Under the pieces are notes generated by a model that saw only the letters and a program-made list of their open reading frames with translations, was not told where the DNA came from and searched no databases. Below, in pieces: positions 4,176-18,679 of a stretch of DNA of 32,000 bases; the stretch's first letter is position 1; each line of letters opens with the position of its first letter. The stretch comes from Erysipelothrix larvae (GTDB lineage Bacteria; Bacillota_I; Bacilli_A; Erysipelotrichales; Erysipelotrichaceae): assembly GCF_001545095.1 (NCBI RefSeq), contig NZ_CP013213.1, positions 2,460,001-2,492,000 of the forward strand. The letters are read 5' to 3'. Position numbers and translations under genes: made by a program.

Positions 4176-4802
4176 ATGAAACTTGTTGATTTAACCCTAA
4201 AAGACTTTACGTCTGAACTTGCTTCCAGTTCGCCTGCACCAGGCGGCGGTAGTGCTGCAGCTTTATCTGGATCAATAGGTGTATCCTTAGTGAGTATGGT
4301 CGGAACTTTGACTTTAGGTTCTAAGAAATATGCTCAACACCATGACGCTACACAAGGACTGATAGACCAAGCAGATGCATCCCGTTTGGAGTTTCTACGG
4401 ATTGTTGATGCAGATACAGAATCCTTTAATATCGTAAGTGATGCCTTTAAATTACCTAAAGAAACACCTGAAGATAAAGCAGCGCGTTCTGTTGCAATCC
4501 AAGCAGGTTTGAAGCAATGCACATTAACCCCTTATCAAATCCTTGAACAAGCGCTTGTTGGGATGAAACTGATTGAAGCCATGCTCGAAGGATTTAATAC
4601 GAGTGCATCGAGTGACTTAGGTGTTGCTGCGCTTCACCTTCACACTGCAGCATATGGAGGGTGGTATAATATTTTAATCAACTTGTCATCCATTAAAGAT
4701 CAAGCGTTTGTGGATGACTATACGACGAAAGGAACATACCTTCTAGAAACCATTGATACGCTACATCAACAGATTCTGGATAAAGTTGCTTCTTATTTAT
4801 AA
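4176..4802 (+). CDS. fchA: Formiminotetrahydrofolate cyclodeaminase / methenyl-THF cyclohydrolase family protein
   Basis: SSPAPGGGSAAALSGSIGVSLVSMV motif. 208 aa. SD AAGGAG. The stop overlaps the next start (TAATG at 4800-4804). Confidence 0.8.
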   Translation: MKLVDLTLKDFTSELASSSPAPGGGSAAALSGSIGVSLVSMVGTLTLGSKKYAQHHDATQGLIDQADASRLEFLRIVDADTESFNIVSDAFKLPKETPEDKAARSVAIQAGLKQCTLTPYQILEQALVGMKLIEAMLEGFNTSASSDLGVAALHLHTAAYGGWYNILINLSSIKDQAFVDDYTTKGTYLLETIDTLHQQILDKVASYL

Positions 4803-5350
4803 TGGATATCATTTCAATTGACACACTGCAAACTACATCATGGTCTGGTGGGATTACACATCAGATAGCGATTTATCCAAGTGACGCAGTATTCGCTCAT
4901 CATGATTTTATTTACAGAGTTTCAAGTGCAGAGGTAGAGTTGGACGAATCCAACTTTACCTCCTTTAAAAAGTACACACGATACATCATTTCACTCAATA
5001 ACCCACTAAAGATTTCCCATAATAAGGGTGGCCACATTGAATTAGATCCGCTTCAGGTACATCGTTTTAGCGGAGATGTTGAAACAACCGCTTATGGGAA
5101 ATGTAGCGACTTTAACTTGATTATACAAAATGGCCTCCTTGGATCAATTGGTGTATTACGCCATGACCTTCAAGAAATACCATCGGGGCATACGATTATC
5201 TATGCGTATGATGAGCGGGTTTATTTAGAAGTAAATGGTGAAAGTCGAATCATCGAAAAGCATAAAGCACTCCTCATTCGAAGTAAAGAACCAATTAAAG
5301 TGGGATTCCTTAGTTCTCGTGCTGTATATGCAAACATTCAAATTAATTAA
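4802..5350 (+). CDS. hutD: HutD/Ves family protein
   Basis: 182 aa. The pattern SWSGGITHQIAIYP ... FIYRVSSAEV ... FTSF ... SDFNLI parallels E. coli Ves / Pseudomonas HutD by recall. Translationally coupled to fchA. Confidence 0.7.
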   Translation: MDIISIDTLQTTSWSGGITHQIAIYPSDAVFAHHDFIYRVSSAEVELDESNFTSFKKYTRYIISLNNPLKISHNKGGHIELDPLQVHRFSGDVETTAYGKCSDFNLIIQNGLLGSIGVLRHDLQEIPSGHTIIYAYDERVYLEVNGESRIIEKHKALLIRSKEPIKVGFLSSRAVYANIQIN

Positions 5351-5424
5351 ATTAACGAAAAAGAAAGGGATATGGTGATGAGTCAAATTCTGATCAACAT
5401 CATCATACTAGGAGTTTTAAGTTT

Positions 5425-7095
5425 ATGTCGTATCTCAGTGATATAGAAATCGTTCAACAAGCACATCTTAAACCAATAGTTGAGGTTGCCATGAAGTTGA
5501 ATGTAGAAGAATCCTTGTATTATTATGGGAAGTATAAAGCAAAACTGAACATCCATCATCTCGAAGATAAGGAACCTTCAGGAAAACTCGTCTTGGTTAC
5601 TGCGATTAATCCAACACCTGCAGGCGAGGGGAAAACCACAACCTCAATTGGCCTTGGTGATGCACTTAATCGACTGGGTAAGAAAACAATTATTGCCTTA
5701 AGAGAACCTTCTTTAGGTCCCGTATTTGGTGTGAAGGGCGGTGCCGCAGGAGGCGGGTATGCACAAGTTGTTCCAATGGAAGATATCAACCTGCATTTCA
5801 CGGGCGATTTTCATGCAATCGGTGCTGCAAATAATTTGCTCGCAGCTTTAATCGATAATCACATCTATCAAGGAAACGCACTTAACATTGATCCTCGTAG
5901 AGTCACATGGCGCCGTGTTGTTGATATGAACGATCGTCAACTTCGAAATATTGTGGATGGGTTAGGTGGTAAAACAAATGGCGAACCACGAGAAGATGGG
6001 TTTGACATTACCGTTGCCTCTGAAGTGATGGCTGTCCTTTGTCTTGCGAAAAATATTACAGACTTAAAAGAACGATTGGGTCGTATGGTTGTGGGTTATA
6101 ATCGAAATGATGAACCGATTACTGCAAAAGACTTAAACGCACAGGGTGCTATGGCAGCCTTACTCAAAGAAGCAATCAAACCAAACCTTGTTCAGACACT
6201 CGAAGGAAATGCAGCCTTAATTCATGGAGGGCCTTTCGCAAACATAGCGCATGGATGTAATTCATTGATTGCAACTCAAACTGCACTTAAACTTGCGGAT
6301 TATGTCATCACAGAAGCTGGATTTGGCGCAGACTTAGGTGCGGAAAAGTTTATTGATATTAAGTGTCGCAGTCTTAATAAATCGCCAGATGCAGTTGTAC
6401 TTGTTGCTACTGTACGCGCCTTAAAAATGCATGGGGGACAAAAGAAGGCTGATCTTGAAACAAAGAATCTTGACGCATTAGAAAAGGGAATTCCAAATCT
6501 ATTACGTCACATTGAAAGCATAACTCAATGCTTTGGACTCCCAGTTGTTGTTGCGATTAATAAATTCCCAACAGATCATGAAGCGGAACTTCAACTTATT
6601 CGTGATAAATGTCGTTTGCACAATGTCAATGTTGCACTTTCTGATGTATGGGCAAAGGGTGGAAAAGGGGGAGAAGCACTTGCAAAAGAAGTGATTAATC
6701 TTGTTGAACACGGTGTTCCTCATTTCAATTACGCTTATGAATTAGAAGATTCAATCGAGACTAAAATTGAAAAGATTGTTACTAGAATATATGGCGGCTC
6801 TTCTGTTAGCTATACCGCGAAGGCTCGAAAAACCATCAAGAAACTTACGGAACTTGGCTATCATACCTTGCCAATCTGTATGGCAAAGACACAGTATTCA
6901 CTCTCTGATGATGCAAAACGCATTGGTCGCCCTGAAGGCTTTGATATCACAATTCGTGATGTAAAGGTATCGGCAGGCGCTGGCTTTATTGTGGTCTTAA
7001 CTGGAGAAATCATGACCATGCCTGGACTTCCTAAAGTACCATCAGCAAACAGTATTGATATTGATGAAGATGGTAAAATAAGTGGACTCTTCTAG
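5425..7095 (+). CDS. fhs: Formate-tetrahydrofolate ligase
   Basis: 556 aa with [15 protein letters not shown]-loop region, [22 protein letters not shown] and [21 protein letters not shown] lies 9 nt upstream. Confidence 0.95.
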
Positions 7096-7104
7096 TTATA
7101 CCTT

Positions 7105-7137
7105 AAAAAACGCAAGCACTTTACACTTGCGTTTTTT
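7105..7137. terminator. Bidirectional rho-independent terminator shared by convergent fhs and the AraC-family gene
   Basis: AAAAAACGCAAG-loop-CTTGCGTTTTTT. An A-run lies on one side and a T-run on the other. The AraC-family stop codon (7121-7123) lies inside the loop. Confidence 0.6.
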
Positions 7138-7969
7138 CTATATCCAACCCCTCATTTTCTATTGGAATCCATAGCTCAGCATAGGAGTTCTTTCCATTGA
7201 AACAATAATACTCAAGGTCGTATTGAAAACGTCTTTTATAGTGTGTTTCTTGAAGCCACACCGAGTAAATTGCATCCCAGGTTTTTTGCACGTTCTCAAC
7301 GATCGGATTCACCACCTTAAAAACTGCATAATATGATGCTTCAAGATGAAGTCCGGGTTTATTAGGATCCATAATCTCTAGATTCCCAATGATATAGGTA
7401 AAATCATGAGTTTCACTTAACATACAGACACCCACAGCATTACACATTGGTTCGTGGTTGGTTTTGAGGTACTCACTCCATAGCTTTGGAATGACTTGAT
7501 AACTCTTCGTCTCAATATGAACCGGGGATCCTTCAACTGTGAGCGCAGGTATAAATTCAATTGTTGGAAACAAACCATCAGCGTGAATCAAATAGCGGTT
7601 AATCACATTCTCTAAACTTAAAGGGGCTCTGAGTTCATAAAAGTTTTGATTCTTTCGCATCATCGAAGGACTCTCACCATAAAGTTTTTCAAAAGCTCGG
7701 CTAAATGCTTCTCGTGAACTATAACCATAGTGTATTGCGATGTCGATAATGGGGCTTGAATTACTGATTAGGTCCCTTGCAGCCTCAGTCATGATACGCT
7801 TTCGAATGTAATCTCTAAGAGAATCTCCAACACAATAACGAAAAATACGATGAAAGTGATAAAGAGAGTATCCTGCGTTTGAGGCAATTGCATTTAAATC
7901 AATGCTCTCATTTAAGTTCGCTTCAATCGTATCTAAAGCGTGTTTTATTGTGTTAATAAGATCATTCAT
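7121..7969 (-). CDS. AraC-family transcriptional regulator with C-terminal GyrI-like small-molecule-binding domain
   Basis: The N-terminal ~105 aa form a double HTH (LNAIASNAGYSLYHFHRIFRY..., IAIHYGYSSREAFSRAFEKLYGESP). The C-terminal ~160 aa have a Rob/GyrI-like beta-rich pattern. The start overlaps the upstream stop (ATGA at 7966-7969). Confidence 0.85.
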   Translation of the reverse strand: MNDLINTIKHALDTIEANLNESIDLNAIASNAGYSLYHFHRIFRYCVGDSLRDYIRKRIMTEAARDLISNSSPIIDIAIHYGYSSREAFSRAFEKLYGESPSMMRKNQNFYELRAPLSLENVINRYLIHADGLFPTIEFIPALTVEGSPVHIETKSYQVIPKLWSEYLKTNHEPMCNAVGVCMLSETHDFTYIIGNLEIMDPNKPGLHLEASYYAVFKVVNPIVENVQKTWDAIYSVWLQETHYKRRFQYDLEYYCFNGKNSYAELWIPIENEGLDIEKTQV

Positions 7970-8838
7970 ACTGACTCCTGAAATCCATTATAAATTACAC
8001 TCAAATCACTCGGTGCTTTTATACGCGGGTTGTTTTTTATATGTTCAATCAATATTTGAGGGTTTTTGTCCACCTGTAAAATGGCATGTGCAAGTGTATC
8101 CATACTTTCATAATCTGCATCATTCCATTGATCAATCGGCAAGTTTTTATACCCTTCCCAATAATCCCATGGATACAATGGCATTTTCAACAAAGCATTC
8201 GCGTCTAGGATTAGGTTGCATGCTAAGTATTCATAGCCCCAATAAGTATAAATCCCAAATTTGCTGGGATCATAGTTTCCGTGTCTACAACCTAACCATG
8301 CTTCAGCAGCATTTATAAAGCGTGGAGCAGGCACGTTGTTTGAATCAAAATCACAGTTCAACTCTTCTCTTTGAAGTTCATCCAATTGGACATCAACCAT
8401 CACCCATCGTTGCTCTTTATCATTATAAGTCTCAAGGACCCAATGGTCGATGAATAAACCCTCTTCTAGGTAATCTGCAAAGCCACATCTTGGTCGTGCA
8501 GCGATTCCTACTTCACGACACAGTGCTGTTGCGATGACTGAAAAGTCACGACAAATCCCAAGGATTCTTTGATTTGGTAATAATGGTGTTGAGATGGAGT
8601 TAATCCCTTTTGCATGTAACACCTTAAGTTTTTCTTCGACACTTCTTAAATAGATTTCTGCTTCTTGTTTTTGTGTTGGCGTCACATGATATCGTTTAGC
8701 CCAATGGCGGTGAAGGCAGATATTTTGAGTCAATCTAACTATTTCCTCAAGACTTTGAGGGTATATGCTGATCATAAACCGCATTGACTTTGGGTCTGTC
8801 ATGATGCCATGTTTGGTATAATCAATGGTTGATTTCAT
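7966..8838 (-). CDS. Cytoplasmic transglutaminase-fold (Cys-His-Asp) domain protein, function unknown
   Basis: Candidate triad with canonical spacing, numbered from M at 8838: C96 (LGICRDFS), H132 (FIDHWV), D149 (WVMVD). I prefer ATG 8838 (SD GAAGGGA upstream) to the track start 8883. No signal peptide or TM segment. Confidence 0.7.
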   Translation of the reverse strand: MKSTIDYTKHGIMTDPKSMRFMISIYPQSLEEIVRLTQNICLHRHWAKRYHVTPTQKQEAEIYLRSVEEKLKVLHAKGINSISTPLLPNQRILGICRDFSVIATALCREVGIAARPRCGFADYLEEGLFIDHWVLETYNDKEQRWVMVDVQLDELQREELNCDFDSNNVPAPRFINAAEAWLGCRHGNYDPSKFGIYTYWGYEYLACNLILDANALLKMPLYPWDYWEGYKNLPIDQWNDADYESMDTLAHAILQVDKNPQILIEHIKNNPRIKAPSDLSVIYNGFQESV

Positions 8839-8957
8839 CTTAATCCCTTCTTTCTCAACTCCATTATATGCAATACAACACAAGAAGGCATGATAGTTTG
8901 TGCTAATACGATGATACCAGCTTGTAAAGAAGCTAAAGCATAGGATACTTATGCATT

Positions 8958-9704
8958 TTAGTCCCCGTGTTCTTTCTTATTTTTTGTAGCCTTAATCAGT
9001 AACATCATAGGACGTTTTAGTTCGTACATCATGCCATCAATGTCCAAAGCATCCTTAGAAGGTTCTGCCTCAACTAAAGCATCGATGGTCATTCCTGTAT
9101 TAATGAGTCCGTTCACAATTTGAGTGAGTGTATGATGATACTTCTCAATGGTATGACCAAGGAATTGAGTGCTTCTTAGCCCTGGTTCATAGTAACGATC
9201 AACTGGCCATACATCTGGGGTCCCATCCTCTTTGTAAATCCATTCTTGATTCACACCACTCGTGTATGTTGGGTGTTCAATGTTCAGCAGGAATATTCCG
9301 TTTGGCTTCAGTGTCTTGGCAATATTTCGATAGACTTCATCTAGATCGTCGATATAGTGAAGTGCTAAGTTTGATAATACCAAATCATATGTTTCAAAAG
9401 GATACGCATAATCCATAATACCAATTACTTTATACGCTATTTTTTCATCTGCATTTCGAGTCAAAGCTTCCTGAATCATTTTTTCACTATGATCAATTGC
9501 AACTACAGTCTTAGCGCCTTGTTCAACCATATACTTTGCATGCCAGCCATAGCCACACCCTAAATCAAGGATACACATATCCTTTACATCTGGAAACATT
9601 TCCTTAAACTGAACCCATTCACCTGCACCGCTTAGTCCTTCTTTACTCCGTGTCATGGACTTATAAGCATTAAAGAAGGTGGGGTTGTTATAGTTGTTTT
9701 TCAT
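8958..9704 (-). CDS. Class I SAM-dependent methyltransferase
   Basis: ILDLGCGYGWH (motif I), VVAIDHSEKM, VLSNLALHYI and LKPNGIFLL. The track start 9716 is a GTG inside the SD (GTGAGGA); ATG 9704 is the better start. Confidence 0.85.
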   Translation of the reverse strand: MKNNYNNPTFFNAYKSMTRSKEGLSGAGEWVQFKEMFPDVKDMCILDLGCGYGWHAKYMVEQGAKTVVAIDHSEKMIQEALTRNADEKIAYKVIGIMDYAYPFETYDLVLSNLALHYIDDLDEVYRNIAKTLKPNGIFLLNIEHPTYTSGVNQEWIYKEDGTPDVWPVDRYYEPGLRSTQFLGHTIEKYHHTLTQIVNGLINTGMTIDALVEAEPSKDALDIDGMMYELKRPMMLLIKATKNKKEHGD

Positions 9705-9888
9705 GTTAGTCCTCACTTATTCATATACAGACCCATTATACAACAGTTTTTACTTATATTGTTTTTTATCGATATATTAACGAAGCCATCACGCACTCTG
9801 GGGTTATTACCTTTTACCTGTACTGATATTTTGCTTTGTTCCTTACTTCTGCGAGTCTGTTTCAATTTATGATTAATCTAGATCTATA

Positions 9889-9905
9889 GTATTTCAGTGA
9901 AATAC
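9889..9905. promoter_or_regulatory. Perfect palindrome GTATTTCA-G-TGAAATAC in the divergent methyltransferase/PTS intergenic region
   Basis: Read directly from the sequence. It lies about 105 nt upstream of the PTS -35. The binding factor is unknown. Confidence 0.3.
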
Positions 9906-10001
9906 ATCTTATTTTTTGTAATAAACGATTGATGTTCAACCATATCAATATGAATTTCGATACTTAAAATGTCCAAAATAAAATTCTGCTATAAAATAAT
10001 C

Positions 10002-10015
10002 TGAAAACCTTTACA
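10002..10015 (+). promoter_or_regulatory. cre-like (CcpA) box TGAAAACCTTTACA overlapping the -35
   Basis: 13/14 match to TGWAANCGNTNWCA. The only mismatch is the central CG, which reads CC here. Confidence 0.35.
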
Positions 10016-10038
10016 TTATGACATCATGATGTTATGAT
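10010..10038 (+). promoter_or_regulatory. Sigma-A promoter of the PTS/DUF871/DgaE-like operon
   Basis: -35 TTTACA (10010-10015), 17-nt spacer, -10 TATGAT (10033-10038) preceded by TGT (extended -10). Confidence 0.55.
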
Positions 10039-10041
10039 GTC
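10020..10041. promoter_or_regulatory. Inverted repeat GACATCAT-N6-ATGATGTC overlapping the spacer and -10; candidate operator of the GntR/UTRA repressor
   Basis: 8-bp arms read directly from the sequence. The position is typical of repressor occlusion. Confidence 0.4.
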
Positions 10042-10069
10042 TGCATATCCATTATACAAGGAGGAGACC

Positions 10070-11365
10070 ATGGAGAAATTTATGCAATTTTTGGAAGAAC
10101 GCATTATGCCTTCCGCAACAAAAATTAGTACTCAACGCCATATGGCTGCAATTAGAAAGGGGATTGTAGCTACATTACCATTGACTATTGTAGGGTCATT
10201 TTTTACAATTTTACTTAATGTTCCTATTGATTCTATCGCAGCAATGCTTGCACCTTATGCTTCTGTAATCGATATTCCTTTCCGTTATACGGTTGGAATT
10301 CTATCATTGTATTGCTCATTTACAATCGCTGCAACTTTAGGCGAATCCTATAAGTTGAATACAATAACTTCTGGAATGTTAGGAACTTTAGCCTTTCTAA
10401 TTACTACAGTTACTCCAACACGCGTTACTGAAGCCGTTGACGGTGTGATTGCTTCTGGACGATATATTAACATTGCAAACTTAAGCTCTCAATCATTATT
10501 TTCTGCAATCTTAACTGCAATTCTCGCTGTGGAAATCTACAATTTTATGCAAAAGAAGAATTTTACATTGAAAATTCCTGATGGTGTTCCGCCAGAAGTT
10601 TCTAACTCTTTCATTGCACTTATTCCAACTGCCGTTATCATACTTTTATTCTGGTTTGTTCGTTATTTCTTCAATCTTAATATCAACGAACTATTAACCA
10701 CTGCTTTAACACCACTAAAAGGAATTCTAGCAGGAAACAGCCTACTCGGTGGCTTACTGACTGTTCTACTAATTTGTGTTTTCTGGGTTCTTGGTATTCA
10801 CGGACCTGCAATCCTAGGACCAATCATTCGTCCATTCTGGGATATGTCAATTGCTGAAAACATGGAAGCATTTGCTGCTGGAGTTTCTGCAAACGCGCTT
10901 CCAAACATCTTCACTGAGCAATTCCTTCAATGGTTTGTTTGGATTGGTGGAGCTGGTGCAACACTCGCATTAACATTATTATTCTTAAGATCAAAATCTA
11001 CCTACTTTAAGAAATTAGGAAAACTTTCATTCTTACCCGGTCTGTTCAACATCAATGAACCAATGATATTTGGTGCTCCTATCGTTATGAATCCAATCCT
11101 TGCGATTCCATTCATCGTTGCGCCATTGGTTACAACAACGCTCTCTTATGTATTAACAATTACTAATATTGTTCCGATGATGATGGCTCGATTACCATTT
11201 ACAGTAATTTCACCTATCGCTGCATGGATGAGTACAGATTGGAGCATTACTGCTGGTGCATTAGTTATCGTAAACTTTATTATTTCTGTAGCAATCTATT
11301 ATCCATTCTTTAAAGTTGCTGAAAAGCAACAACTTGCTAAGGAACTAGAAGGCAATAACTCATAA
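10070..11365 (+). CDS. PTS EIIC permease, lactose/cellobiose (Lac/Chb) family
   Basis: About 431-aa polytopic protein starting MEKFMQFLEERIMPSATKISTQRHMAAIRKG. It contains GIHGPAILGPIIRPFW and NINEPMIFGAPIVMNP, typical of the CelB/ChbC family. ATG 10070 has SD AAGGAGGAG. The track start 10034 lies inside the -10 element. Confidence 0.85.
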   Translation: MEKFMQFLEERIMPSATKISTQRHMAAIRKGIVATLPLTIVGSFFTILLNVPIDSIAAMLAPYASVIDIPFRYTVGILSLYCSFTIAATLGESYKLNTITSGMLGTLAFLITTVTPTRVTEAVDGVIASGRYINIANLSSQSLFSAILTAILAVEIYNFMQKKNFTLKIPDGVPPEVSNSFIALIPTAVIILLFWFVRYFFNLNINELLTTALTPLKGILAGNSLLGGLLTVLLICVFWVLGIHGPAILGPIIRPFWDMSIAENMEAFAAGVSANALPNIFTEQFLQWFVWIGGAGATLALTLLFLRSKSTYFKKLGKLSFLPGLFNINEPMIFGAPIVMNPILAIPFIVAPLVTTTLSYVLTITNIVPMMMARLPFTVISPIAAWMSTDWSITAGALVIVNFIISVAIYYPFFKVAEKQQLAKELEGNNS

Positions 11366-11430
11366 TCTACAATATATTTTGAAAGGAGACGTACGAGGGA
11401 CATAATTAGGTGTTCCTCGTATAATTATTT

Positions 11431-11694
11431 ATGACACTCTATGAATTATTAACACTTGTTTGCATCTTTATCCTTTGTCAAATTACAGCTCGCAATAAAC
11501 TGTTAGTCAATCAAATTAAGGATTATTCTTTGCTTAAGTTATCATTGATAAGCTTAGGTTTAATTGCAATCACAATAATTATTACAATCATCGCTCATTT
11601 ATCACTATGGCTTGTAGTTGGGATGACACTCTTTACTGCCATAATTACAATTAATCAATATAATGCATCGTTAGAAAACGCAAGGAGGATGTGA
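11431..11694 (+). CDS. Hypothetical 87-aa membrane protein (3 predicted TM segments)
   Basis: The ORF fills the EIIC-DUF871 gap exactly. Its stop TGA (11692-11694) is 1 nt from the DUF871 ATG, and the DUF871 SD AAGGAGGA lies in its last codons. It has no convincing SD of its own, and a hairpin (ACGAGG/CCTCGT) lies just upstream. Confidence 0.4.
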   Translation: MTLYELLTLVCIFILCQITARNKLLVNQIKDYSLLKLSLISLGLIAITIIITIIAHLSLWLVVGMTLFTAIITINQYNASLENARRM

Positions 11695-11695
11695 G

Positions 11696-12784
11696 ATGAA
11701 ACGAAGACTTGGTATTTCTATTTACCCCGACCACAGCAATATTGAAGCAGATATGGCTTATTTGGACACTGCTTCTCACCTTGGTTTTTCTCGACTGTTT
11801 GCAAGCATGCTTGAAGTTTCTGGAAGCAAAGAAGAGACGGCTGCTAAGTTTAAAACAATTCTTAAGTATGCAAAAGACAAAGGGTTTGAAGTAATCCTTG
11901 ATGTTGCACCGAACATCTTTGAGCAATTGCAGATTTCCTATGATGATCTTAGCTTTTTTAAGGAACTTCATGCGGATGGAATTCGTCTCGATGTTGGATT
12001 TGATGGCAATAAAGAAGCTTTATTGACATACAATGAATATGGCCTTATTATTGAATTGAACATGAGTAATGATGTTGCTTATCTTGATAACATTCTGACC
12101 TACCAAGCCAATAAGCCATTCTTATATGGATGCCATAACTTCTACCCTCAGTCAGGCACTGGGTTAGATTATGATTTCTTTGTGAACTGTTCAAAACGGT
12201 TTAAACGTCACGGACTACGAACTGCTGCATTTATCACTTCAAGTACTGCTACTTTAGGTCCTTGGAATATCAATGATGGGCTTCCAACTCTAGAGCTTCA
12301 CCGAAGTTTACCGATTGATGTACAAGCTAAGCATCTCTTTGCAACAGGACTCATCGATGATGTGATTATTGGAAACGCATATGCAAGTGATGAAGAACTT
12401 GAATCCCTAAGCAAAGTCAATCGTTACCAATTAAGTCTTAGAGTCGATGTTAATGAACGTAATAATGAAGTTGAGAATGACATTATCACGCACAACCAAC
12501 ATCAACGTCGGGGGGATATTTCAAGTTCTTTAATTCGTTCAACAGAGGTTCGTAAAAAGTATGCCCATAGTCCAAATTCATTGCATTCAAATGAAGATCC
12601 TTTCCAATTTGGAGATGTTGTTATTGGCAATGATTGCTTTGGAAAATACAAAAACGAATTGCAAATTGTGTTGCAACCTCATACAGATCCCCGCAAGAAC
12701 AAAGTAGGACAGATTCTTGAGGAAGAGAAGTTTTTACTGAAATACATCAGTCCTTGGAGTAAATTTAGATTAGAAAAATTGTGA
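11696..12784 (+). CDS. DUF871 family protein (MupG-like 6-phospho-glycosidase)
   Basis: N-terminus MKRRLGISIYPDHSN...GFSRLF and the 362-aa length match my recollection of DUF871/MupG proteins. Strong SD. Confidence 0.7.
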   Translation: MKRRLGISIYPDHSNIEADMAYLDTASHLGFSRLFASMLEVSGSKEETAAKFKTILKYAKDKGFEVILDVAPNIFEQLQISYDDLSFFKELHADGIRLDVGFDGNKEALLTYNEYGLIIELNMSNDVAYLDNILTYQANKPFLYGCHNFYPQSGTGLDYDFFVNCSKRFKRHGLRTAAFITSSTATLGPWNINDGLPTLELHRSLPIDVQAKHLFATGLIDDVIIGNAYASDEELESLSKVNRYQLSLRVDVNERNNEVENDIITHNQHQRRGDISSSLIRSTEVRKKYAHSPNSLHSNEDPFQFGDVVIGNDCFGKYKNELQIVLQPHTDPRKNKVGQILEEEKFLLKYISPWSKFRLEKL

Positions 12785-12788
12785 TATT

Positions 12789-13904
12789 ATGCTCGATATA
12801 CTTATTAAAAATGCCGTCTTAACAGACGGAAGTAAAATTGATATAGGCGTAAAGAATGGTAAGATTGTTGCGCTTGACACCCTGCTTAACTTAAATGCAG
12901 TTCAGACATTCGTGATGGAATCTGGGTCGTACATCAGTGCGGGTTGGATCGATGACCATGTCCATTGCAATCCGACGATGGATATCTATTATGATGAACC
13001 CGATCTCATTGGTGTACACTCTGGAGTTTGTACAGTAATTGATGCTGGGTCCTGCGGATATTCGAATGTTGACGCTTTTTTTCAATGTGTAAAGAATGCT
13101 AAAACAAATGTCTACGCCTTACTCAACATCTCAGATATTGGGCTGATTAGACAAGACGAACTCTCTGATTTATCATTGATTCAAATTGATCATATAAAAG
13201 AGAAGTTTAATATGTACCCCGATTTTCTACTTGGAATTAAAGCACGAATGAGTCAAAGTGTTGTTGGTGATAACGGTATTCAACCTTTAGTGATGGCAAA
13301 GAAGATTCAAAAAGAACTCGGTGATATTCCGTTAATGGTTCACATTGGGTCTGCACCACCACCTCTTGAAGACATCATGCCGTTATTAGATCATCATGAT
13401 ATGGTTACCCATTGTTTCAATGGTAAAGCGAATTCAATCATTGATTCTGATATGCATATTAAGTCTTGTGTCTTATGTGCTCAAAAACGTGGAGTGGCAT
13501 TTGATTTAGGCCATGGAACTGCGAGTTTTGACTTTAACGTTGCACGGCACTGTTTAAATCTCGGATTTAAATGCTGTACAATTAGTACAGATATCTATCA
13601 CCGAAACCGTGTTAGCGGACCTGTGATGAGTTTTGCAGTCACATTAAGTAAGATGTTACACCTTGGTTATTCTTTAGAGGAAATCATTGATAAAGTTACC
13701 AGGGTGCCTGCAGAGTTCTTTAAGATCCAAAATAAAGGGAAAATAGAAATCGGATATGACGCTGATTTCACAATCTTCGAAGTCAAAGACACACAATTTG
13801 AAGCAATTGATTCTTCAGGAAATCGTGAAATCATTCATAAATTAATTCAACCCCGTCACGTAATTGTAGGTGGTGTGATGATCGATATGGAGGAGATTCA
13901 ATGA
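12789..13904 (+). CDS. Amidohydrolase-superfamily metallo-deacylase (dihydroorotase-like, deacetylase type)
   Basis: MLDILIKNAVLTDG...GKIVAL...ISAGWIDDHVHC (HxH metal motif), later MVHIG and HCFNG histidines, and C-terminal GKIEIGYDADFTIF. Confidence 0.8.
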   Translation: MLDILIKNAVLTDGSKIDIGVKNGKIVALDTLLNLNAVQTFVMESGSYISAGWIDDHVHCNPTMDIYYDEPDLIGVHSGVCTVIDAGSCGYSNVDAFFQCVKNAKTNVYALLNISDIGLIRQDELSDLSLIQIDHIKEKFNMYPDFLLGIKARMSQSVVGDNGIQPLVMAKKIQKELGDIPLMVHIGSAPPPLEDIMPLLDHHDMVTHCFNGKANSIIDSDMHIKSCVLCAQKRGVAFDLGHGTASFDFNVARHCLNLGFKCCTISTDIYHRNRVSGPVMSFAVTLSKMLHLGYSLEEIIDKVTRVPAEFFKIQNKGKIEIGYDADFTIFEVKDTQFEAIDSSGNREIIHKLIQPRHVIVGGVMIDMEEIQ

Positions 13905-14983
13905 ACGAACTTAATTTAACGCGTGTAATTAATGCAAGTGGTAAAATGTCGATACTGGGTGTTTCAAAGGTTCAAAAGACTGCAATCGAAGCACAACAAT
14001 ACGGTGCTCAAAACTTCTTTGTGATCGAAGAACTTATTGAGAAAACTGGCAGTCAACTCAGTCAATTAACCGGGTACCCTGCAGCAACAATCGTTGCAAG
14101 TGCTTCATCAGGGATTGCACTCTGTGTTGCAGGGTGTATCGCTAAAGATAATGACCACGCATTGTTACACCCTTATGATCCAACCCTAACAAAACGTGAA
14201 GTTGTTATTATGAAAGGCCATAACGTTGATTATGGTGCCCCAGTTCAAACAATGATTGAACTGGGGGGAGGGGTTGTTGTTGAAGCTGGCTATGCGAATG
14301 GATGTACTGCATCGCATGTTAAAGCATGCTTGAATGAAAACACCTGTGCTTTGATGTATGTTGTCAGCCATCATACTGTTCAAAAAAGTATGTTATCTCT
14401 TGAAGATATGATTCAAATTAGCAAAGCATCAAACGTACCCCTTATTGTGGATGCTGCAGCTGAAGAAGCACTTACACAATATGTCAATCAAGCGATTGAT
14501 TGTGTGATCTTTAGTGGCGCAAAAGCCATTGAAGGCCCAAGTTCTGGACTTGTATTTGGAAGTGTTCAGGCAATCGACTGGGTGCGACGTCAAAGCAAGG
14601 GAATTGGCCGTGCAATGAAAATTGGAAAAGAAAACATTCTCGGTCTCTATCAAGCAACTAAAACCTACTTAAGTGAAGGAAACGAATCTGGCGCATCCAT
14701 GATTGAACGTATTGAACCTTGGCTAAAAGATATGAAGGCACTTGGTATCAATGCATCAATCACTCAAGATGGAGCAGGCCGCGATATCTATCGTTTAAAA
14801 ATAATAGTAGAGGATGCACCTTCATTAATTTCTTCGATGAAACAACAAAACCCTGCTGTTTATACCCGTGAGTACTATGCAAATCAAGGGATCATCGAGT
14901 TTGATGTTAGAGCACTAAATCAAGACGATATGCGTATCATCACACAATATATCGAATCATTTATGAAAGGAAACCACCCATGA
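13901..14983 (+). CDS. DgaE-like SelA-fold PLP-dependent ammonia-lyase
   Basis: VINASGKMSILGVSKV at the N-terminus and FSGAKAIEGPSSGLV (candidate PLP lysine). 360 aa. ATGA overlap with the upstream gene. SD GGAGGAG. Confidence 0.75.
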   Translation: MNELNLTRVINASGKMSILGVSKVQKTAIEAQQYGAQNFFVIEELIEKTGSQLSQLTGYPAATIVASASSGIALCVAGCIAKDNDHALLHPYDPTLTKREVVIMKGHNVDYGAPVQTMIELGGGVVVEAGYANGCTASHVKACLNENTCALMYVVSHHTVQKSMLSLEDMIQISKASNVPLIVDAAAEEALTQYVNQAIDCVIFSGAKAIEGPSSGLVFGSVQAIDWVRRQSKGIGRAMKIGKENILGLYQATKTYLSEGNESGASMIERIEPWLKDMKALGINASITQDGAGRDIYRLKIIVEDAPSLISSMKQQNPAVYTREYYANQGIIEFDVRALNQDDMRIITQYIESFMKGNHP

Positions 14984-15720
14984 GAACAAAACCAAATTTC
15001 TATAATAACCGAGTAGCACTTAATGTGCTTGCGAATACTCTTGAAAATGCTGTTGAATGCTATGAGGCAGCAGAACACCACGCAATTATTGGACTATTAT
15101 CTTCGAACTATGAAACAGATGAACTTGCGATTGAAGATTTTAAACGTTATCAAAGTGCATTAGACAACGCCATTTCAATTGGTTTAGGTGCCGGCAATCC
15201 AAATCAAAGCAATATGGTCGCAAGACTTAGTGGTGCACTGAAACCACAACATGTCAATCAAGTATTTACTGGCATTGGTAATACCCGTGGAAGACTTGGG
15301 GATGCGGATACATACATTAACGGTCTTGTTTCACCTACTGGAACTGTTGGATTTGTTAATATTGGGACTGGACCAATCAGCTCTAAAAACGATCCTGTTG
15401 TTGTCAGTGTCCAAGGGGCCATCGATTTGCTGAAAGATATGGGTGCTAATACCATTAAGTATTTCCCAATGAAAGGTCTTGCACATCTTGATGAATACCG
15501 CGAAGTATGTCGACTTTGTGCACAAAATGACTTTGGACTTGAACCTACAGGTGGTATCGATCTCGATAACTTTGAAATCCTCTTGCAAATTGCTCTTGAT
15601 GCAAATGTAAAAGAAATCATTCCGCATGTGTACAGCTCAATCATTGACCCAACAACAAATAACACCCGCGTTGAAGATGTGAAAACATTATTTGGAATCA
15701 TTAAAAAGCTGGTAAAATAA
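14980..15720 (+). CDS. KDGP aldolase family protein (2-dehydro-3-deoxy-phosphogluconate aldolase-like)
   Basis: PNFYNNRVALNVLA, GLGAGNPNQSNMV, QHVNQVFTG, LEPTGGIDLDNF and IPHVYSSIID match my recollection of the family consensus. ATGA overlap with the upstream gene. Confidence 0.7.
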   Translation: MRTKPNFYNNRVALNVLANTLENAVECYEAAEHHAIIGLLSSNYETDELAIEDFKRYQSALDNAISIGLGAGNPNQSNMVARLSGALKPQHVNQVFTGIGNTRGRLGDADTYINGLVSPTGTVGFVNIGTGPISSKNDPVVVSVQGAIDLLKDMGANTIKYFPMKGLAHLDEYREVCRLCAQNDFGLEPTGGIDLDNFEILLQIALDANVKEIIPHVYSSIIDPTTNNTRVEDVKTLFGIIKKLVK

Positions 15721-15721
15721 C

Positions 15722-16714
15722 ATGAGAATTGTTGCATTTGGCGAAACAATGCTTCGCTTATCAACTCAAAATAACAAAGCCTTATCTCAATCACAAGCAC
15801 TTGATATGTTGTTTTGTGGAACGGGAGTAAACTTGTTAAGAAACCTGTATCAGTTTGGTCATGAAGTTTCTCTTATTTCTTCAGTCCCTGATAATGATAT
15901 TGGAATCGCTGCGCTTTCAAATCTAAGAATGCTTGGCATTAATGAACAAGCAGTCACGAAATCTGGCAATCATATTGGAATCTACTTTCTAGAACCAGGA
16001 CATGGTTTAAGACCAAGTAAAGTCACTTATATGAACCGAAGTTTCTCAAGCTTTAATACCTATCAGTTTACACAAGAAGAATTAAGACAAGCACTTTCAG
16101 GTGCTGATCTTGTCCATATCTGCGGTATTTCGTGCCAAACTTCCGTGATTAGTAGAAACAATGCTTTATTGGTTGCTTCATTATGTGAATCGATGAGTAT
16201 TAAACTCTGCTTTGATTTTAATTTCCGTCAATCCTTAATGGATCCAAATGAATATGATACGGTTCTTGATGCCTTCAAATATATTCTTAAACGCAGTACA
16301 ATCGTTTTTGGGAGTGTCCTTGATTTAGAAAAGACACTACAAATTGAAGGTTCTACTTTTGAAGAACGCACGTTAAACTTCATGAATCAATACACGGTCG
16401 ATGTATTCTCTGGAACACTCAAAACTTTAGATCACAACGATCAGTTAGTTATTAAAGGGTTTTTGTGCAAGGATTCTGTCTTCAAGTCCGGAAAACCCAT
16501 AGCCGTAGATGTTTTGGATGCGATTGGAACCGGTGATGCCTATGCATCTGGAATTATCAGTGGATTACAATCCGGATGGCCGATTCAAGAAGTAATTGAT
16601 TTCGCTACACGATGCTGTGCAGTAGCCTATACAACGGTTGGTGATTACTTGAATGTCACCCAAGAAGAAATACTACGCATGAACCCTTCAAAAGCTCAAC
16701 GTGTCTTGCGATAA
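15722..16714 (+). CDS. PfkB-family sugar kinase (2-keto-3-deoxygluconate kinase-like)
   Basis: 330 aa with N-terminal FGETMLRL and C-terminal DAIGTGDAYASG (PfkB signature 2). Confidence 0.8.
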   Translation: MRIVAFGETMLRLSTQNNKALSQSQALDMLFCGTGVNLLRNLYQFGHEVSLISSVPDNDIGIAALSNLRMLGINEQAVTKSGNHIGIYFLEPGHGLRPSKVTYMNRSFSSFNTYQFTQEELRQALSGADLVHICGISCQTSVISRNNALLVASLCESMSIKLCFDFNFRQSLMDPNEYDTVLDAFKYILKRSTIVFGSVLDLEKTLQIEGSTFEERTLNFMNQYTVDVFSGTLKTLDHNDQLVIKGFLCKDSVFKSGKPIAVDVLDAIGTGDAYASGIISGLQSGWPIQEVIDFATRCCAVAYTTVGDYLNVTQEEILRMNPSKAQRVLR

Positions 16715-16780
16715 TAGCGCATTACTTTTATTCGTCACTTTACACGTTTTCCTTAATATCAATGACTCAATCTATGCAAA

Positions 16781-16829
16781 AGAAACACCCCTTAGATTCA
16801 ATGTGAATTTAAGGAATGTTTCTTTTTTT
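16781..16829. terminator. Long-stem rho-independent terminator ending the PTS operon; probably also serves the convergent GntR gene
   Basis: GAAACA-CCCTTAGATTCA-atg-TGAATTTAAGG-aa-TGTTTC followed by TTTTTTT. Confidence 0.65.
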
Positions 16830-16903
16830 GGTTTGATTTGCTACAAACGATAATGTACGAGTTACAGATTTAATGATTGCATTGATTGGTAGGCGTGTAT
16901 ATG

Positions 16904-17596
16904 TTAAATCTCATATTCTACTTTATAGGGTAAAACCTCTGTATTATAATAACCGCGAGAAATCTCTATAATATTTCCATCTTCATCTATGGTGCTGCGT
17001 ACACGTCGCAATACACTTGAAACATTTAAAACATCTTTGATTTCAGCCGAAACAACCTCAACATTAAAATCATCTTCGAATTTCATCACAGTGTGCCCTT
17101 TGGCATCCAACCAGCGATACAAGGAATTCTCTTCAATCTTCCGTTTTGCAGTTTCTAAATCTTCATTAAAACAAGGAAAATAGTGTACAAAATATACATA
17201 GGGTTTCTGGTCTAGATAATAGATTCTTTTCATGCACAGTGCGGTAGACCCAATTGCTTCAAGAATGCTCGCATCTTGTATCTCATGATCAACTTCCAAT
17301 GATATAATTTTCTTTTCGAGTTGGTGGTTTCGTTCAAGAATTGATGAAAAGGAGGTTGCTTTTGAAAGTTTGTTAAACAATCGATTGCTCACAACGACTG
17401 TCCCAATACCTCGTTTCTTATCTATAAATCCTTCTCCGACAAGCTCTTCGATCGCTTTACGTACAGTGATCTTGCTTACTTCAAACATAGCCTCCAATTC
17501 GTTCTCTGTTGGCAAGAAAGAATTCACAGGATAAACACCGTCTAAAATGTCTTGTTTAATTTGATTTGCAATCTCAGCATACAACAATTTCTTCAT
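16904..17596 (-). CDS. GntR-family regulator, HutC/FarR subfamily (winged HTH + UTRA effector domain)
   Basis: LPTENELEAMFEVSKITVRKAIEELVGEGFIDKKRGIGTVV, then a ~150-aa UTRA-like C-terminus. 230 aa. SD AAGGAG. Confidence 0.85.
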   Translation of the reverse strand: MKKLLYAEIANQIKQDILDGVYPVNSFLPTENELEAMFEVSKITVRKAIEELVGEGFIDKKRGIGTVVVSNRLFNKLSKATSFSSILERNHQLEKKIISLEVDHEIQDASILEAIGSTALCMKRIYYLDQKPYVYFVHYFPCFNEDLETAKRKIEENSLYRWLDAKGHTVMKFEDDFNVEVVSAEIKDVLNVSSVLRRVRSTIDEDGNIIEISRGYYNTEVLPYKVEYEI

Positions 17597-18026
17597 AGTA
17601 AATACTCCTTGATATGTCGATTATATTCTACTGACAATGATAATATAATAATGTCTTAAAAGCAACTTTATCCCGCTTTCGTATGTAAATGAAATTACCG
17701 CATATTTAGCTAAAGATAACGTTCAAAGAGTAGTTCAAACTCACACGTGAAGCATTATTTTATGACCAAGAGACACCTGTTTTCGTACCCTTTTTAATGG
17801 ATTCGATTGCACCTGATACTGTATTTGGTTTTCTTCTGATTTGTCCTGGCATAAACATTTCGTGTTTTATATGCGTGACCTTAAACCAAACTGTTTACAA
17901 ATTGATGAACATCATACATTGAGCTACATTTTTAATAATCGTAGGAAGGACCACGCGTATGTCAATTAATTGTGGATTAGTTGAAGTTTTATACCAATTA
18001 TACATTCCTCTTTTTCTCATACGAAT

Positions 18027-18058
18027 TTAAAAAAGGTTCGAATTAATGATTCGAACCT
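18027..18058 (-). terminator. Rho-independent terminator of the V-ATPase operon
   Basis: AGGTTCGAAT-taatg-ATTCGAACCT. On the minus strand the stem is followed by TTTTTT. It begins 10 nt after the ntpD stop. Confidence 0.7.
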
Positions 18059-18067
18059 CTTCTGTTA

Positions 18068-18679
18068 CTATCTTCGATCTGTCTGGCTCTTCACCAATTT
18101 CATTCGAATAAAATCTTCACGTTCTTTTTCTTCGAGCGCTTCAGATATCATTTTTATTTCTGATTCAAGATTTGGAATTACGATATAAGCAAGTGCATTC
18201 GCACGTTTACGGCTTTTCTCTATTGCTTTCGCAAGTCGATACATGCCGTTATCGAGTTCCGCTAATTTTACTGTATAGCTTTTCACAATGTTGAATCGCA
18301 TAAACGCTTCATCTAAGTGACTGTCTGTACCTTGAACCCTGAATTGAGGCTCGTTACTGATTGTTTTGTTTAAGTGAACCTTAGGTATCTCAATCCCCAT
18401 AACAGAGCGGTATACGATTTCTACACCGTCGTCTACGGTTACTTGACTTGCAATGGCGCGCGTTGTAAAAGAACCGATTGAAATATTGGCATTTTGTAAT
18501 GAATAGTACGCATCATCATATGCCTCATCAATAACAGTTCGTAGTGTTTTAACATCATCCATCATTTGTGATAACTCTTGCATTAGAATCACACGCTTAC
18601 GGTCCATGAGGTCATATCCCAATTTCGCAAGCCTTAATGATTCCCTACTGGCTATGAGGTTGCTTTTGGTAATGAGCAT
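18068..18679 (-). CDS. ntpD: V/A-type ATPase subunit D
   Basis: 203-aa coiled-coil central-stalk pattern (LRLAKLGYDLMDRKRVILMQEL). Last gene after subunit B. Confidence 0.9.
   Translation of the reverse strand: MLITKSNLIASRESLRLAKLGYDLMDRKRVILMQELSQMMDDVKTLRTVIDEAYDDAYYSLQNANISIGSFTTRAIASQVTVDDGVEIVYRSVMGIEIPKVHLNKTISNEPQFRVQGTDSHLDEAFMRFNIVKSYTVKLAELDNGMYRLAKAIEKSRKRANALAYIVIPNLESEIKMISEALEEKEREDFIRMKLVKSQTDRR

Follow-up and report, generated by a model that had tools for sequence, protein, structure and literature searches.

The DNA analysed here is a stretch of 32,000 nucleotides of the Erysipelothrix larvae chromosome (contig NZ_CP013213.1, positions 2,460,001 to 2,492,000), which is referred to below as the window. 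It carries a run of seven genes on the plus strand, encoding the enzyme IIC permease (EIIC) of a phosphotransferase system (PTS), an 87-residue protein, a protein of glycoside hydrolase family 170 (GH170, also known as DUF871), an amidohydrolase, a DgaE-type lyase, a DgaF-type aldolase and a PfkB-family kinase, and these are followed by a convergent gene for a GntR/UTRA regulator. The seven-gene operon is real and is conserved in many genomes. Our preferred reading, to which we give a probability of about 45%, is that it provides substrate-inducible catabolism of a β-linked disaccharide that carries an N-acylated 2-amino-2-deoxy-aldonic acid at its reducing end, the leading candidate being chitobionic acid and the kinase acting before the lyase. 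As judged from its genes, the operon would most likely enable Gram-positive bacteria to take up such a disaccharide and degrade it to pyruvate and glyceraldehyde-3-phosphate. The evidence consists of gene content, protein families, conserved catalytic residues, synteny, the co-variation of genes with their genomic context, and an operator motif, and it is from these that every substrate and reaction proposed for the operon is predicted.

In the proposed pathway, the EIIC, its 87-residue partner and EIIA/EIIB proteins encoded elsewhere would import the disaccharide and phosphorylate O6 of its non-reducing sugar, as Lac/Chb-family PTS permeases do with β-disaccharides. The GH170 protein would then split the phospho-glycoside into a sugar 6-phosphate (probably N-acetylglucosamine 6-phosphate, GlcNAc-6-P, which would pass to NagA/NagB encoded elsewhere) and free N-acetylglucosaminate. 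The PfkB kinase is predicted to phosphorylate the free sugar acid at O6, and the EF_0837-type amidohydrolase to remove the acyl group, a reaction that may precede or follow the phosphorylation. The DgaE-like lyase would convert D-glucosaminate-6-phosphate to 2-keto-3-deoxy-6-phosphogluconate (KDPG) and ammonia, and the DgaF-like aldolase would cleave KDPG to pyruvate and glyceraldehyde-3-phosphate. The GntR/UTRA protein would repress both the operon and its own gene through ACATYATRATGT palindromes that overlap the promoters. A β-glycoside with a 2-acylamido-2-deoxy-aldonate aglycone follows from this set of enzymes. Chitobionic acid (GlcNAc-β-1,4-N-acetyl-D-glucosaminate) is the leading candidate for the substrate, because C1-oxidised chitin is the known natural source of 2-acetamido-2-deoxy-aldonate glycosides (PMC9537276), and because the characterised route for N-acetylglucosaminate (GlcNAc1A) has analogous steps that are carried out by unrelated enzymes.

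We compared the operon with 80 loci from species-representative genomes of Lactobacillales and Listeria, which were retrieved by alignment of DgaE homologues. The loci were searched by tblastn with the window proteins, all of their open reading frames (ORFs) were clustered, and recurrent clusters were annotated with Pfam. In 32 of the 80 loci, which we call class A, the genes are colinear in the order [GntR]-EIIC-small ORF-GH170-amidohydrolase-lyase-aldolase-kinase, and every one of the 32 contains the amidohydrolase and the kinase; the genera represented are Enterococcus, Desemzia, Carnobacterium, Vagococcus, Marinilactibacillus and Lacticaseibacillus. A preliminary description of this DNA, made from the letters and ORFs only, had left its proposed operon to be checked for synteny. 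The gene set proved colinear not only in these loci but also in Lactococcus formosensis, which carries the class A genes with the order of kinase and aldolase swapped, and in Miniphocaeibacter halophilus (Tissierellia).

The same core enzymes are found in three further contexts. Class B (24 loci) has genes for a PRD regulator, a small PRD protein, Gly_rich_SFCGS, DUF4312, DUF4311 and DUF4310, followed by amidohydrolase, lyase and aldolase, and none of these loci has the kinase. The DUF431x set lies approximately 6 kb 5′ of the lyase match (for example at 4442-8871 of locus L011; also in L005, L013, L015, L018, L019 and 18 more loci). It resembles an uncharacterised system for uptake, perhaps with phosphorylation of the substrate, and we found no paper in the literature describing this gene set. 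Class C (nine loci) consists of a sigma-54/PRD activator, a mannose-family EIIA/B/C/D, the lyase and the aldolase, which is the layout of Salmonella dga; both the amidohydrolase and the kinase are absent from all nine. Class D consists of three loci out of three, from some Listeria species (L009 at 8129-14195, L048 and L051), with the order GntR-amidohydrolase-lyase-aldolase-kinase-GntP permease, and looks like a version of the pathway for the monomer, with a gluconate-type carrier. Classes A and B are merged in seven loci, of which two have the kinase, one is truncated, and four, namely E. faecalis EF0835-0839 and three Lactobacillus loci, have no kinase. The E. faecalis locus (L062) has EIIC, GH170, amidohydrolase, lyase and aldolase in the same order as the window.

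The distribution of two of the enzymes across these contexts is informative. The deacylase tracks every context but that of free glucosaminate (class C); the fact that class C alone lacks it suggests a need for it wherever the acid arrives N-acylated. The kinase occurs in 32/32 class A loci and in 3/3 loci with the GntP permease, and in 0/24 class B and 0/9 class C loci. It is thus found only together with EIIC and GH170 or with the GntP permease, which suggests that it is needed where the acid reaches the cytoplasm unphosphorylated. The whole pattern of contexts fits one model, in which the core enzymes would degrade D-glucosaminate-6-phosphate.

The family labels given in the preliminary description were matched by assignments with profile hidden Markov models, and the lyase, amidohydrolase and aldolase all score above the cut-offs of the families concerned (Table 1). 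In the amidohydrolase, alignment with structure 2ICS (389 bits) shows H57, H59, K151, H185, H208 and D268 to be identical. From general knowledge of the amidohydrolase superfamily we take these residues to be the metal ligands (HxH, Lys, His, His, Asp), and the ligand-type set expected of an EF_0837-family member is therefore intact. The lyase aligns with DGL (7LC0), the Salmonella ammonia-lyase for D-glucosaminate-6-phosphate, with 258 bits. The catalytic His-His pair of the DgaE family is present (H157/H158, corresponding to H162/H163), as is the lysine that binds pyridoxal 5′-phosphate (PLP; K208, corresponding to K213). The aldolase satisfies the model for DgaF-type equivalogs.

Two comparisons suggest that the lyase acts on a 6-phosphate. 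Arg301, Arg332 and Arg346 of Salmonella DGL have been proposed, by manual docking, to form a cluster that binds the 6-phosphate (PMC9529869); they align with R298, R323 and R337 of the window protein and are invariant in 15 homologues. In addition, the lyases are approximately 70% identical both within and between context classes, and this includes class C (phosphorylating) against classes A and D (non-phosphorylating). Context-specific clades were sought for the lyase, the amidohydrolase and the aldolase and none was found, the top-level structure following taxonomy instead; this suggests the same chemistry as that of the characterised 6-phosphate lyase.

The two proteins predicted to take up and cleave the disaccharide are also clearly placed. 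The EIIC matches PF02378 over its full length (positions 1-319/319) and the lacE subfamily model TIGR00410 with 372 bits against a cut-off of 236, which makes it a member of the Lac/Cel/Chb family (TC 4.A.3). It aligns with Bacillus cereus ChbC (3QNQ) with 266 bits and keeps the GIHG and NINE motifs, and it is 65-72% identical to the EIIC proteins of syntenic loci. The preliminary description called it an orphan, and indeed no EIIA or EIIB of Lac type is encoded anywhere in the window, nor is there one within reach in the class A loci of Lactobacillales. In M. halophilus, however, Lac-type EIIB and EIIA genes follow the class A genes inside the orthologous operon, so that the EIIC, although an orphan in most genomes, probably belongs to a complete PTS. 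The GH170 protein contains both domains of its family at full length (MupG_N 1-237/237 and MupG_C 2-116/116) and is 64-72% identical to its syntenic orthologues. It scores 470 bits against B. cereus 1X7F and only 88 bits (approximately 25% identity) against E. faecalis 2P0O, which has been listed as a putative orthologue of MupG (PMC6262408); this distance, together with the absence of murQ and murP from the window, argues against orthology with MupG. We also considered recycling of peptidoglycan, with a disaccharide of N-acetylmuramic acid and GlcNAc (MurNAc-GlcNAc) as substrate. It is rejected, because there is no murQ or murP, the GH170 protein has only a distant relationship with the putative orthologue of MupG, and such recycling would leave the downstream enzymes without a role.

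We note that the Lactobacillales orthologues have diverged unequally from the window proteins: the EIIC and GH170 have 64-72% identity, against 45-53% for the amidohydrolase, 50-55% for the lyase and 35-42% for the kinase. The contrast could reflect stronger constraint on the proteins of uptake and cleavage, or the two halves of the operon may have had separate histories.

Several observations, set out in this and the following paragraph, weigh against our preferred reading, and the first group concerns the order of the steps. We consider that the kinase probably acts upstream of the lyase, on N-acetylglucosaminate or glucosaminate rather than on 2-keto-3-deoxygluconate (KDG), because the arginine cluster assigned to the 6-phosphate is conserved and because class C lyases are as similar to those of classes A and D as these are among themselves. 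Alternatively, for the same class of substrate, free N-acetylglucosaminate could be deacetylated and then deaminated in unphosphorylated form to KDG, the PfkB protein being an ordinary KDG kinase that feeds the aldolase. This is the order followed by the characterised GlcNAc1A (ong) route, namely deacetylation, deamination to KDG and then KdgK (PMC9537276). The best NCBIfam matches of the kinase are models of KDG and KDGal kinases, and its structural matches include the Thermotoga maritima KDG kinase 2AFB (112 bits) besides 3KTN (209 bits). However, it falls far below the cut-off of every KDG-kinase model (NF052444, 37.5 against 400; NF041332, 118 against 440; NF040938, 67 against 400), leaving only the general PfkB domain. 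The four merged loci that have EIIC, GH170, the DUF431x genes, the lyase and the aldolase and lack a kinase in the operon are a better fit to a generic KDG kinase encoded elsewhere, since a housekeeping KdgK could substitute. In the lyase, Arg226 of Salmonella DGL, which was docked at the carboxylate, is replaced by Ser221, and the assignment of the phosphate site itself rests on manual docking with no structure of a complex. Set against this are the invariance of the three arginines and the similarity of the lyases of mannose-family PTS loci, whose substrate is phosphorylated. On balance we judge deamination before phosphorylation unlikely, although it is the alternative we take most seriously; as between the two orders, we would weigh the evidence at a little under two to one for the kinase acting first. 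The preliminary description had the keto acid phosphorylated after deamination, and this step is amended accordingly; the remainder of its pathway is supported, as a hypothesis, by the families, the synteny and the comparison of contexts.

A second group of observations concerns the substrate. The EIIC lies below the cut-off of every substrate-specific equivalog model (TIGR00359, 372 against 434; NF007157, 221 against 503; TIGR00394, 220 against 614; NF007634 for ChbC, 182 against 760) and its identity with the B. cereus permease for diacetylchitobiose is only about 40%. The lyase scores 337 against a cut-off of 600 for the DgaE equivalog model NF047797. The GH170 clade is also found in an unrelated PTS operon with a GH1 enzyme, so that GH170 by itself does not specify the aglycone. 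A scan for chitinolytic genes in the 1,567 ORFs of the 80 loci and in six frames of the window found no PROSITE GH18 signature and no AA10-like ORF (signal peptide and HG pattern) in the window or within 10 kb of the 80 loci, a weak negative given the crude motifs used, and thus gave no genomic link between the operon and chitin. These points would suit an operon of the same architecture that serves another substrate, with an aglycone of N-acetylgalactosaminate or another 2-acylamido-aldonate, or a glycone of Glc, GlcN or MurNAc type, derived from a source other than chitin oxidised by lytic polysaccharide monooxygenases (LPMOs). We consider this improbable, in view of the natural source already mentioned, the aldolase that passes the cut-off for DgaF-type KDPG aldolases, and the GH170 members of known role, which act on β-1,4 disaccharides of MurNAc and GlcNAc. 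The operon could also be read as two independent, co-regulated modules, in which the EIIC, the small protein and GH170 handle an ordinary disaccharide such as diacetylchitobiose while the other four enzymes degrade monomeric N-acetylglucosaminate that enters by a separate carrier. The enzyme module does occur alone with the GntP permease in Listeria and with the DUF431x genes elsewhere, the GH170 clade is found with a different PTS, and the EIIC and GH170 pair of Lacticaseibacillus paracasei handles plain diacetylchitobiose. Against two modules stand the strict colinearity in 32 loci, the gaps and overlaps of 1-4 nt in the window, the single operator-bearing promoter and the lack of any other candidate acid carrier in these loci. 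The kinase, moreover, is present in all 32 loci in which EIIC and GH170 occur without DUF431x genes, and is missing wherever there is neither EIIC plus GH170 nor the GntP permease. We therefore regard this arrangement as the least probable of those considered here.

The other operon in which the GH170 clade was seen is in Enterococcus florum (locus L083, 593-9089). Its GH170 protein is 65% identical to that of the window, and it is accompanied by a sigma-54/PRD activator, Lac-type EIIB and EIIA, an acetyltransferase (Acetyltransf_9/SCP2_2), an EIIC and a GH1 protein.

Regulation of the operon was examined through its operator-like sequences. The 28-bp palindrome at the promoter has a 12-bp core, ACATCATGATGT, at 10021-10032, which covers the interval from -35 to -10. 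When up to two mismatches to the operator pattern were allowed, only two matches were found in the window. One, ACATCATGATGT, lies in the promoter of the operon, and the other, ATATAATAATGT, is upstream of the regulator gene. Two matches, against 4.1 expected, is no over-representation, so it is only where they lie that is informative. In the first site, two symmetric changes from the consensus leave the palindrome intact. In the 1.55 Mb of retrieved loci, the 12-bp palindrome ACATTATAATGT occurs 52 times with one mismatch allowed: 29 of these are within 150 nt 5′ of a class A EIIC, 5 are 5′ of a GntR gene, and 4 are 5′ of the amidohydrolase in GntR-led loci, Listeria included (in L009 and L048 the operator lies 39-40 nt 5′ of the amidohydrolase). 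The positions of these sites support a single regulon with an autoregulated repressor, in which classes A and D would be served by the same pair of regulator and operator. The convergent minus-strand regulator described earlier was recovered with both of its domains, an N-terminal GntR winged helix and a C-terminal UTRA domain, as in repressors of the GntR/HutC subfamily; it is 38-48% identical to the GntR protein whose gene precedes the operon in Lactobacillales. With palindromes at both promoters, to which its binding is predicted, it is presumed to be the repressor of the operon.

The promoter itself is more difficult to assign. In this AT-rich DNA, promoter-like sites are no rarer than would be expected by chance (41 found, 31.6 expected), and the placement of a promoter at 10010-10038 is supported mainly by the operator that overlaps it. 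The strongest match to the sigma-70 consensus in the region is at 12023-12051 (TTGACA-17-TATTAT, 11/12), inside the GH170 coding sequence, and may be a promoter within the operon or have arisen by chance. Of the earlier claim that one promoter serves the operon, the site is therefore present as described, while its singleness is plausible but cannot be proved from sequence, such sites being common.

The operon can be described as a PTS phospho-glycosidase operon joined to the lyase/aldolase route of dga, a new combination of known kinds. The D-glucosaminate pathway of Salmonella enterica (dgaABCDEF/DgaR) was reportedly described by Miller and colleagues in 2013. In it, DgaE converts glucosaminate-6-phosphate to KDPG, which is cleaved by DgaF (PMC9529869). 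The window operon resembles it in having a homologous lyase in which the His pair, PLP lysine and Arg cluster are kept, a DgaF-type aldolase, PTS-dependent entry, and pyruvate and glyceraldehyde-3-phosphate as predicted products. In Salmonella (7LC0/7LCE), however, a four-component mannose-family PTS acts on the monomer under a sigma-54 activator, and a glycosidase, a deacylase and a kinase are all absent, whereas the window has a Lac/Chb-family EIIC, GH170, an EF_0837 amidohydrolase, a PfkB kinase and a GntR repressor. The window contains neither a mannose-family EIIABCD nor a sigma-54 activator, and operons of the Salmonella type form a separate class in Enterococcus.

The ong pathway of marine Gammaproteobacteria, which serves the use of LPMO-oxidised chitin (Jiang et al., 2022; PMC9537276), likewise consists of deacetylation, PLP-dependent deamination, a KdgK-type kinase, an aldolase and a repressor. 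Its components are different: OngA is a periplasmic GH20 enzyme, OngB a deacetylase of D-aminoacylase type and OngC a PLP deaminase of fold type III, uptake is by an SSS symporter, and there is neither a PTS nor a phosphorylated amino-acid intermediate (PMC9537276). The window has a PTS, a cytoplasmic GH170, an amidohydrolase of the EF_0837 family and a SelA-like lyase of fold type I, and is set apart from the Ong enzymes by the family descriptions. The likeness to ong is one of analogy in the logic of the pathway and not of membership. No homologues of OngB or OngC were found in a study of chitin use by Aeromonas, which left other deacetylases and deaminases possible.

Two further systems combine a PTS permease with GH170. 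In the Staphylococcus aureus mupG-murQ-murP-murR operon, the GH170 enzyme MupG releases MurNAc-6P and free GlcNAc from MurNAc-6P-GlcNAc (Kluj et al., 2018; PMC6262408), and thus, as proposed here, a GH170/DUF871 6-phospho-glycosidase yields a sugar 6-phosphate and a free reducing-end sugar. MurP, unlike the EIIC of the window, is a glucose-family EIIBC, and the MurQ etherase is part of the operon, whereas there is no murQ at the window. In L. paracasei the GH170 protein ChbE is genetically required for the use of diacetylchitobiose with a Cel-type EIIC (PMC12791066, published in 2026). The chbRCDE/chbBA genes resemble the window in that a GntR repressor, a Cel-type EIIC, a small protein and GH170 are encoded in one operon, with an operator that overlaps the promoter. 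They differ in that ChbD is a soluble DUF3284 protein rather than an 87-residue membrane protein, EIIA and EIIB are adjacent, and the products pass to NagA/NagB; the amidohydrolase, lyase, aldolase and kinase are all absent.

The window amidohydrolase and aldolase also score above the cut-offs of the EF_0837 and EF_0839 families (TIGR03583 and TIGR03581), both of which are classed as hypothetical equivalogs. In NCBIfam release 20 (June 2026) these labels are retained, none of the amidohydrolase, the GH170 protein and the kinase has a specific name, and the last two are without a model. The E. faecalis genes EF0835-EF0839, which differ from the window in being merged with DUF431x genes and in having no kinase, appear in the literature only in transposon-sequencing (Tn-seq) and R-IVET studies, with speculation about amino sugars. 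The preliminary description knew of no experimental account of this gene combination, and our search of full-text literature likewise yielded none, within a coverage that is thin for subscription journals, so that a paper may have been missed.

Many Bacillota secrete chitin-active LPMOs and chitinases. The only known route for the aldonic-acid products of chitin oxidation is the non-PTS one of marine Gammaproteobacteria (PMC9537276). The present operon, which joins a disaccharide PTS and GH170 to an N-deacylase and a glucosaminate-6-phosphate lyase and aldolase, is a concrete candidate for a missing counterpart; that it is in fact the Gram-positive, PTS-based route for chitobionic acid freed by LPMOs is a tentative suggestion, more doubtful than the general reading of the operon. 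If that suggestion is correct, the EIIC would be a chitobionate-specific Lac-family permease with an obligatory 87-residue membrane partner, the GH170 protein a 6-phospho-β-N-acetylglucosaminidase that tolerates an aldonate aglycone, and the kinase an N-acetylglucosaminate 6-kinase derived from KDG kinases. The EF_0837 amidohydrolase family would gain its first physiological substrate, N-acetyl-D-glucosaminate-6-phosphate, and the widespread DUF4310/4311/4312/SFCGS genes would be an uptake system for the monomer that feeds the same enzymes. Functions would thereby be given to several families that at present bear just structural-genomics or hypothetical-equivalog labels: EF_0837, a large GH170 clade that includes 1X7F, a group of KdgK-like kinases and a small membrane protein without a family. 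The organisms that carry the operon include enterococci, carnobacteria and lactobacilli associated with the gut and with food, in which the pathway could matter for colonisation of these niches.

The features of the region are listed in Table 1. All of the ORFs and coordinates given in the preliminary description were reproduced by our ORF map, and so was the tight packing of the genes, with 4-nt ATGA overlaps at 13901 and 14980 and gaps of 1, 4 and 1 nt at 11695, 12785-12788 and 15721. For the EIIC, the start codon at 10070 is favoured over the ORF-maximal start at 10034 by an AGGAGG at 10060-10065 and by the public annotation.

Table 1. Features of the operon, its regulator and its signals. 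Positions are those of the window; scores are in bits, followed where applicable by the cut-off of the model.
Feature	Positions	Strand	Evidence
Sigma-70-type promoter-like site, TTTACA-17-TATGAT with TG extension	10010-10038	+	10/12 match; 32 nt 5′ of EIIC start codon
Operator-like 28-bp palindrome, arms ACATTATGACATCA and TGATGTTATGATGT	10013-10040	.	14-nt arms, 86% complementary; nested perfect 8-nt inverted repeat
PTS EIIC permease, Lac/Cel/Chb family (AOC36_11510)	10070-11365	+	PF02378, 188; TIGR00410, 372
Strong intra-operon RNA hairpin, 13-bp stem, weak T-tail	11391-11422	+	ΔG -19.1 kcal/mol, z -4.4; absent from the preliminary description
Small membrane protein, 87 residues (AOC36_11515)	11431-11694	+	Profile of small ORFs after this EIIC elsewhere, 48, residues 2-86
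GH170 (DUF871/MupG-family) putative 6-phospho-β-glycosidase (AOC36_11520)	11696-12784	+	MupG_N, 323; MupG_C, 121
EF_0837-family amidohydrolase, putative N-acyl-glucosaminate(-6-phosphate) deacylase (AOC36_11525)	12789-13904	+	TIGR03583, 481 (432); PF22647
DgaE-family PLP-dependent ammonia-lyase (AOC36_11530)	13901-14983	+	TIGR01437, 463 (385)
KDGP (DgaF-type) aldolase (AOC36_11535)	14980-15720	+	PF07071, 322; NF047796 equivalog, 363 (300); 3LM7, 310
PfkB-family sugar-acid kinase, related to KDG kinases (AOC36_11540)	15722-16714	+	PF00294, 79
Bidirectional intrinsic terminator, 21-pair hairpin	16778-16826	.	Plus strand ΔG -22.6 kcal/mol, z -4.6, then U7; minus strand ΔG -23.6, z -5.5
GntR/HutC-type regulator with UTRA effector domain (AOC36_11545)	16904-17596	-	PF00392, 63; PF07702, 57.5
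Second operator-like site, ATATAATAATGT	17643-17654	.	47 nt 5′ of regulator start codon

The 87-residue protein matched no Pfam or NCBIfam family. A small ORF is nevertheless found downstream of the orthologous EIIC in 34/37 genes, for example at 9957-10226 of locus L073, 7735-8004 of L082 and 7725-7985 of L081. The proteins that follow the EIIC are 86-90 residues long, with two or three hydrophobic segments (identified by eye) and a conserved F-I-L/V-C-Q near the N-terminus. On these comparisons the 87-residue ORF is taken as a real gene for a conserved membrane partner rather than an artefact, and it is likely to encode an accessory partner of this EIIC; the family may represent an undescribed accessory subunit of Lac-family PTS permeases.

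A strong hairpin is predicted in the spacer between the EIIC and the small gene, and at least 13 other syntenic loci have a hairpin there, with unrelated sequences in a shared position (L008, L014, L020, L026, L030, L031, L032, L035, L036, L038, L047, L050 and L076; ΔG -13 to -28 kcal/mol). In the window, the stem has a Shine-Dalgarno sequence of GGAG type immediately 5′ of it and the start codon of the small gene 8 nt 3′ of it, so that folding of the stem could give the two a normal spacing. The hairpin is probably an element of mRNA stability, attenuation or translational control. An Rfam scan of 9500-18200 identified no family; its only matches, of the terminator hairpin to a miRNA model, were spurious, and in the 350-nt leader there was neither a riboswitch nor a RAT-type antiterminator. 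The terminator, placed at 16781-16829 in the preliminary description, was found as a hairpin 3 nt further upstream, with U7 after it. Since the hairpin also forms on the minus strand, it can serve the convergent regulator gene too.

E. larvae was isolated from the gut of a beetle larva. The eight proteins of the region, AOC36_11510-11545, are identical to AMC94576-AMC94583 from its chromosome, some of which have misleading names in GenBank: AMC94580 is an “L-seryl-tRNA selenium transferase”, AMC94579 a “dihydroorotase” and AMC94581 a “2-dehydro-3-deoxyphosphooctonate aldolase”. On the same basis, the E. faecalis orthologue EF0838 was placed under selenium metabolism in a Tn-seq paper. Selenocysteine synthesis and dihydroorotase activity, as implied by the deposited annotations, are rejected, the scores with SelA and dihydroorotase models being far below the cut-offs.

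The GC content of the operon does not set it apart from its surroundings, and both flanks are unrelated to it. Downstream are ORFs that by eye resemble a V-type ATPase operon, followed by Mfd, and upstream are a formiminotransferase/HutD/formate-tetrahydrofolate ligase set, an AraC-type regulator, a transglutaminase-like protein and a methyltransferase. Within the upstream flank, the segment 739-7095 carries a divergent regulator with a GntR domain (333 residues) beside a Na+/glutamate symporter, a formiminotransferase (FTCD_N/FTCD), a cyclodeaminase (FTCD_C), HutD and the formate-tetrahydrofolate ligase, and looks like a catabolic unit for formiminoglutamate or the end of histidine degradation.

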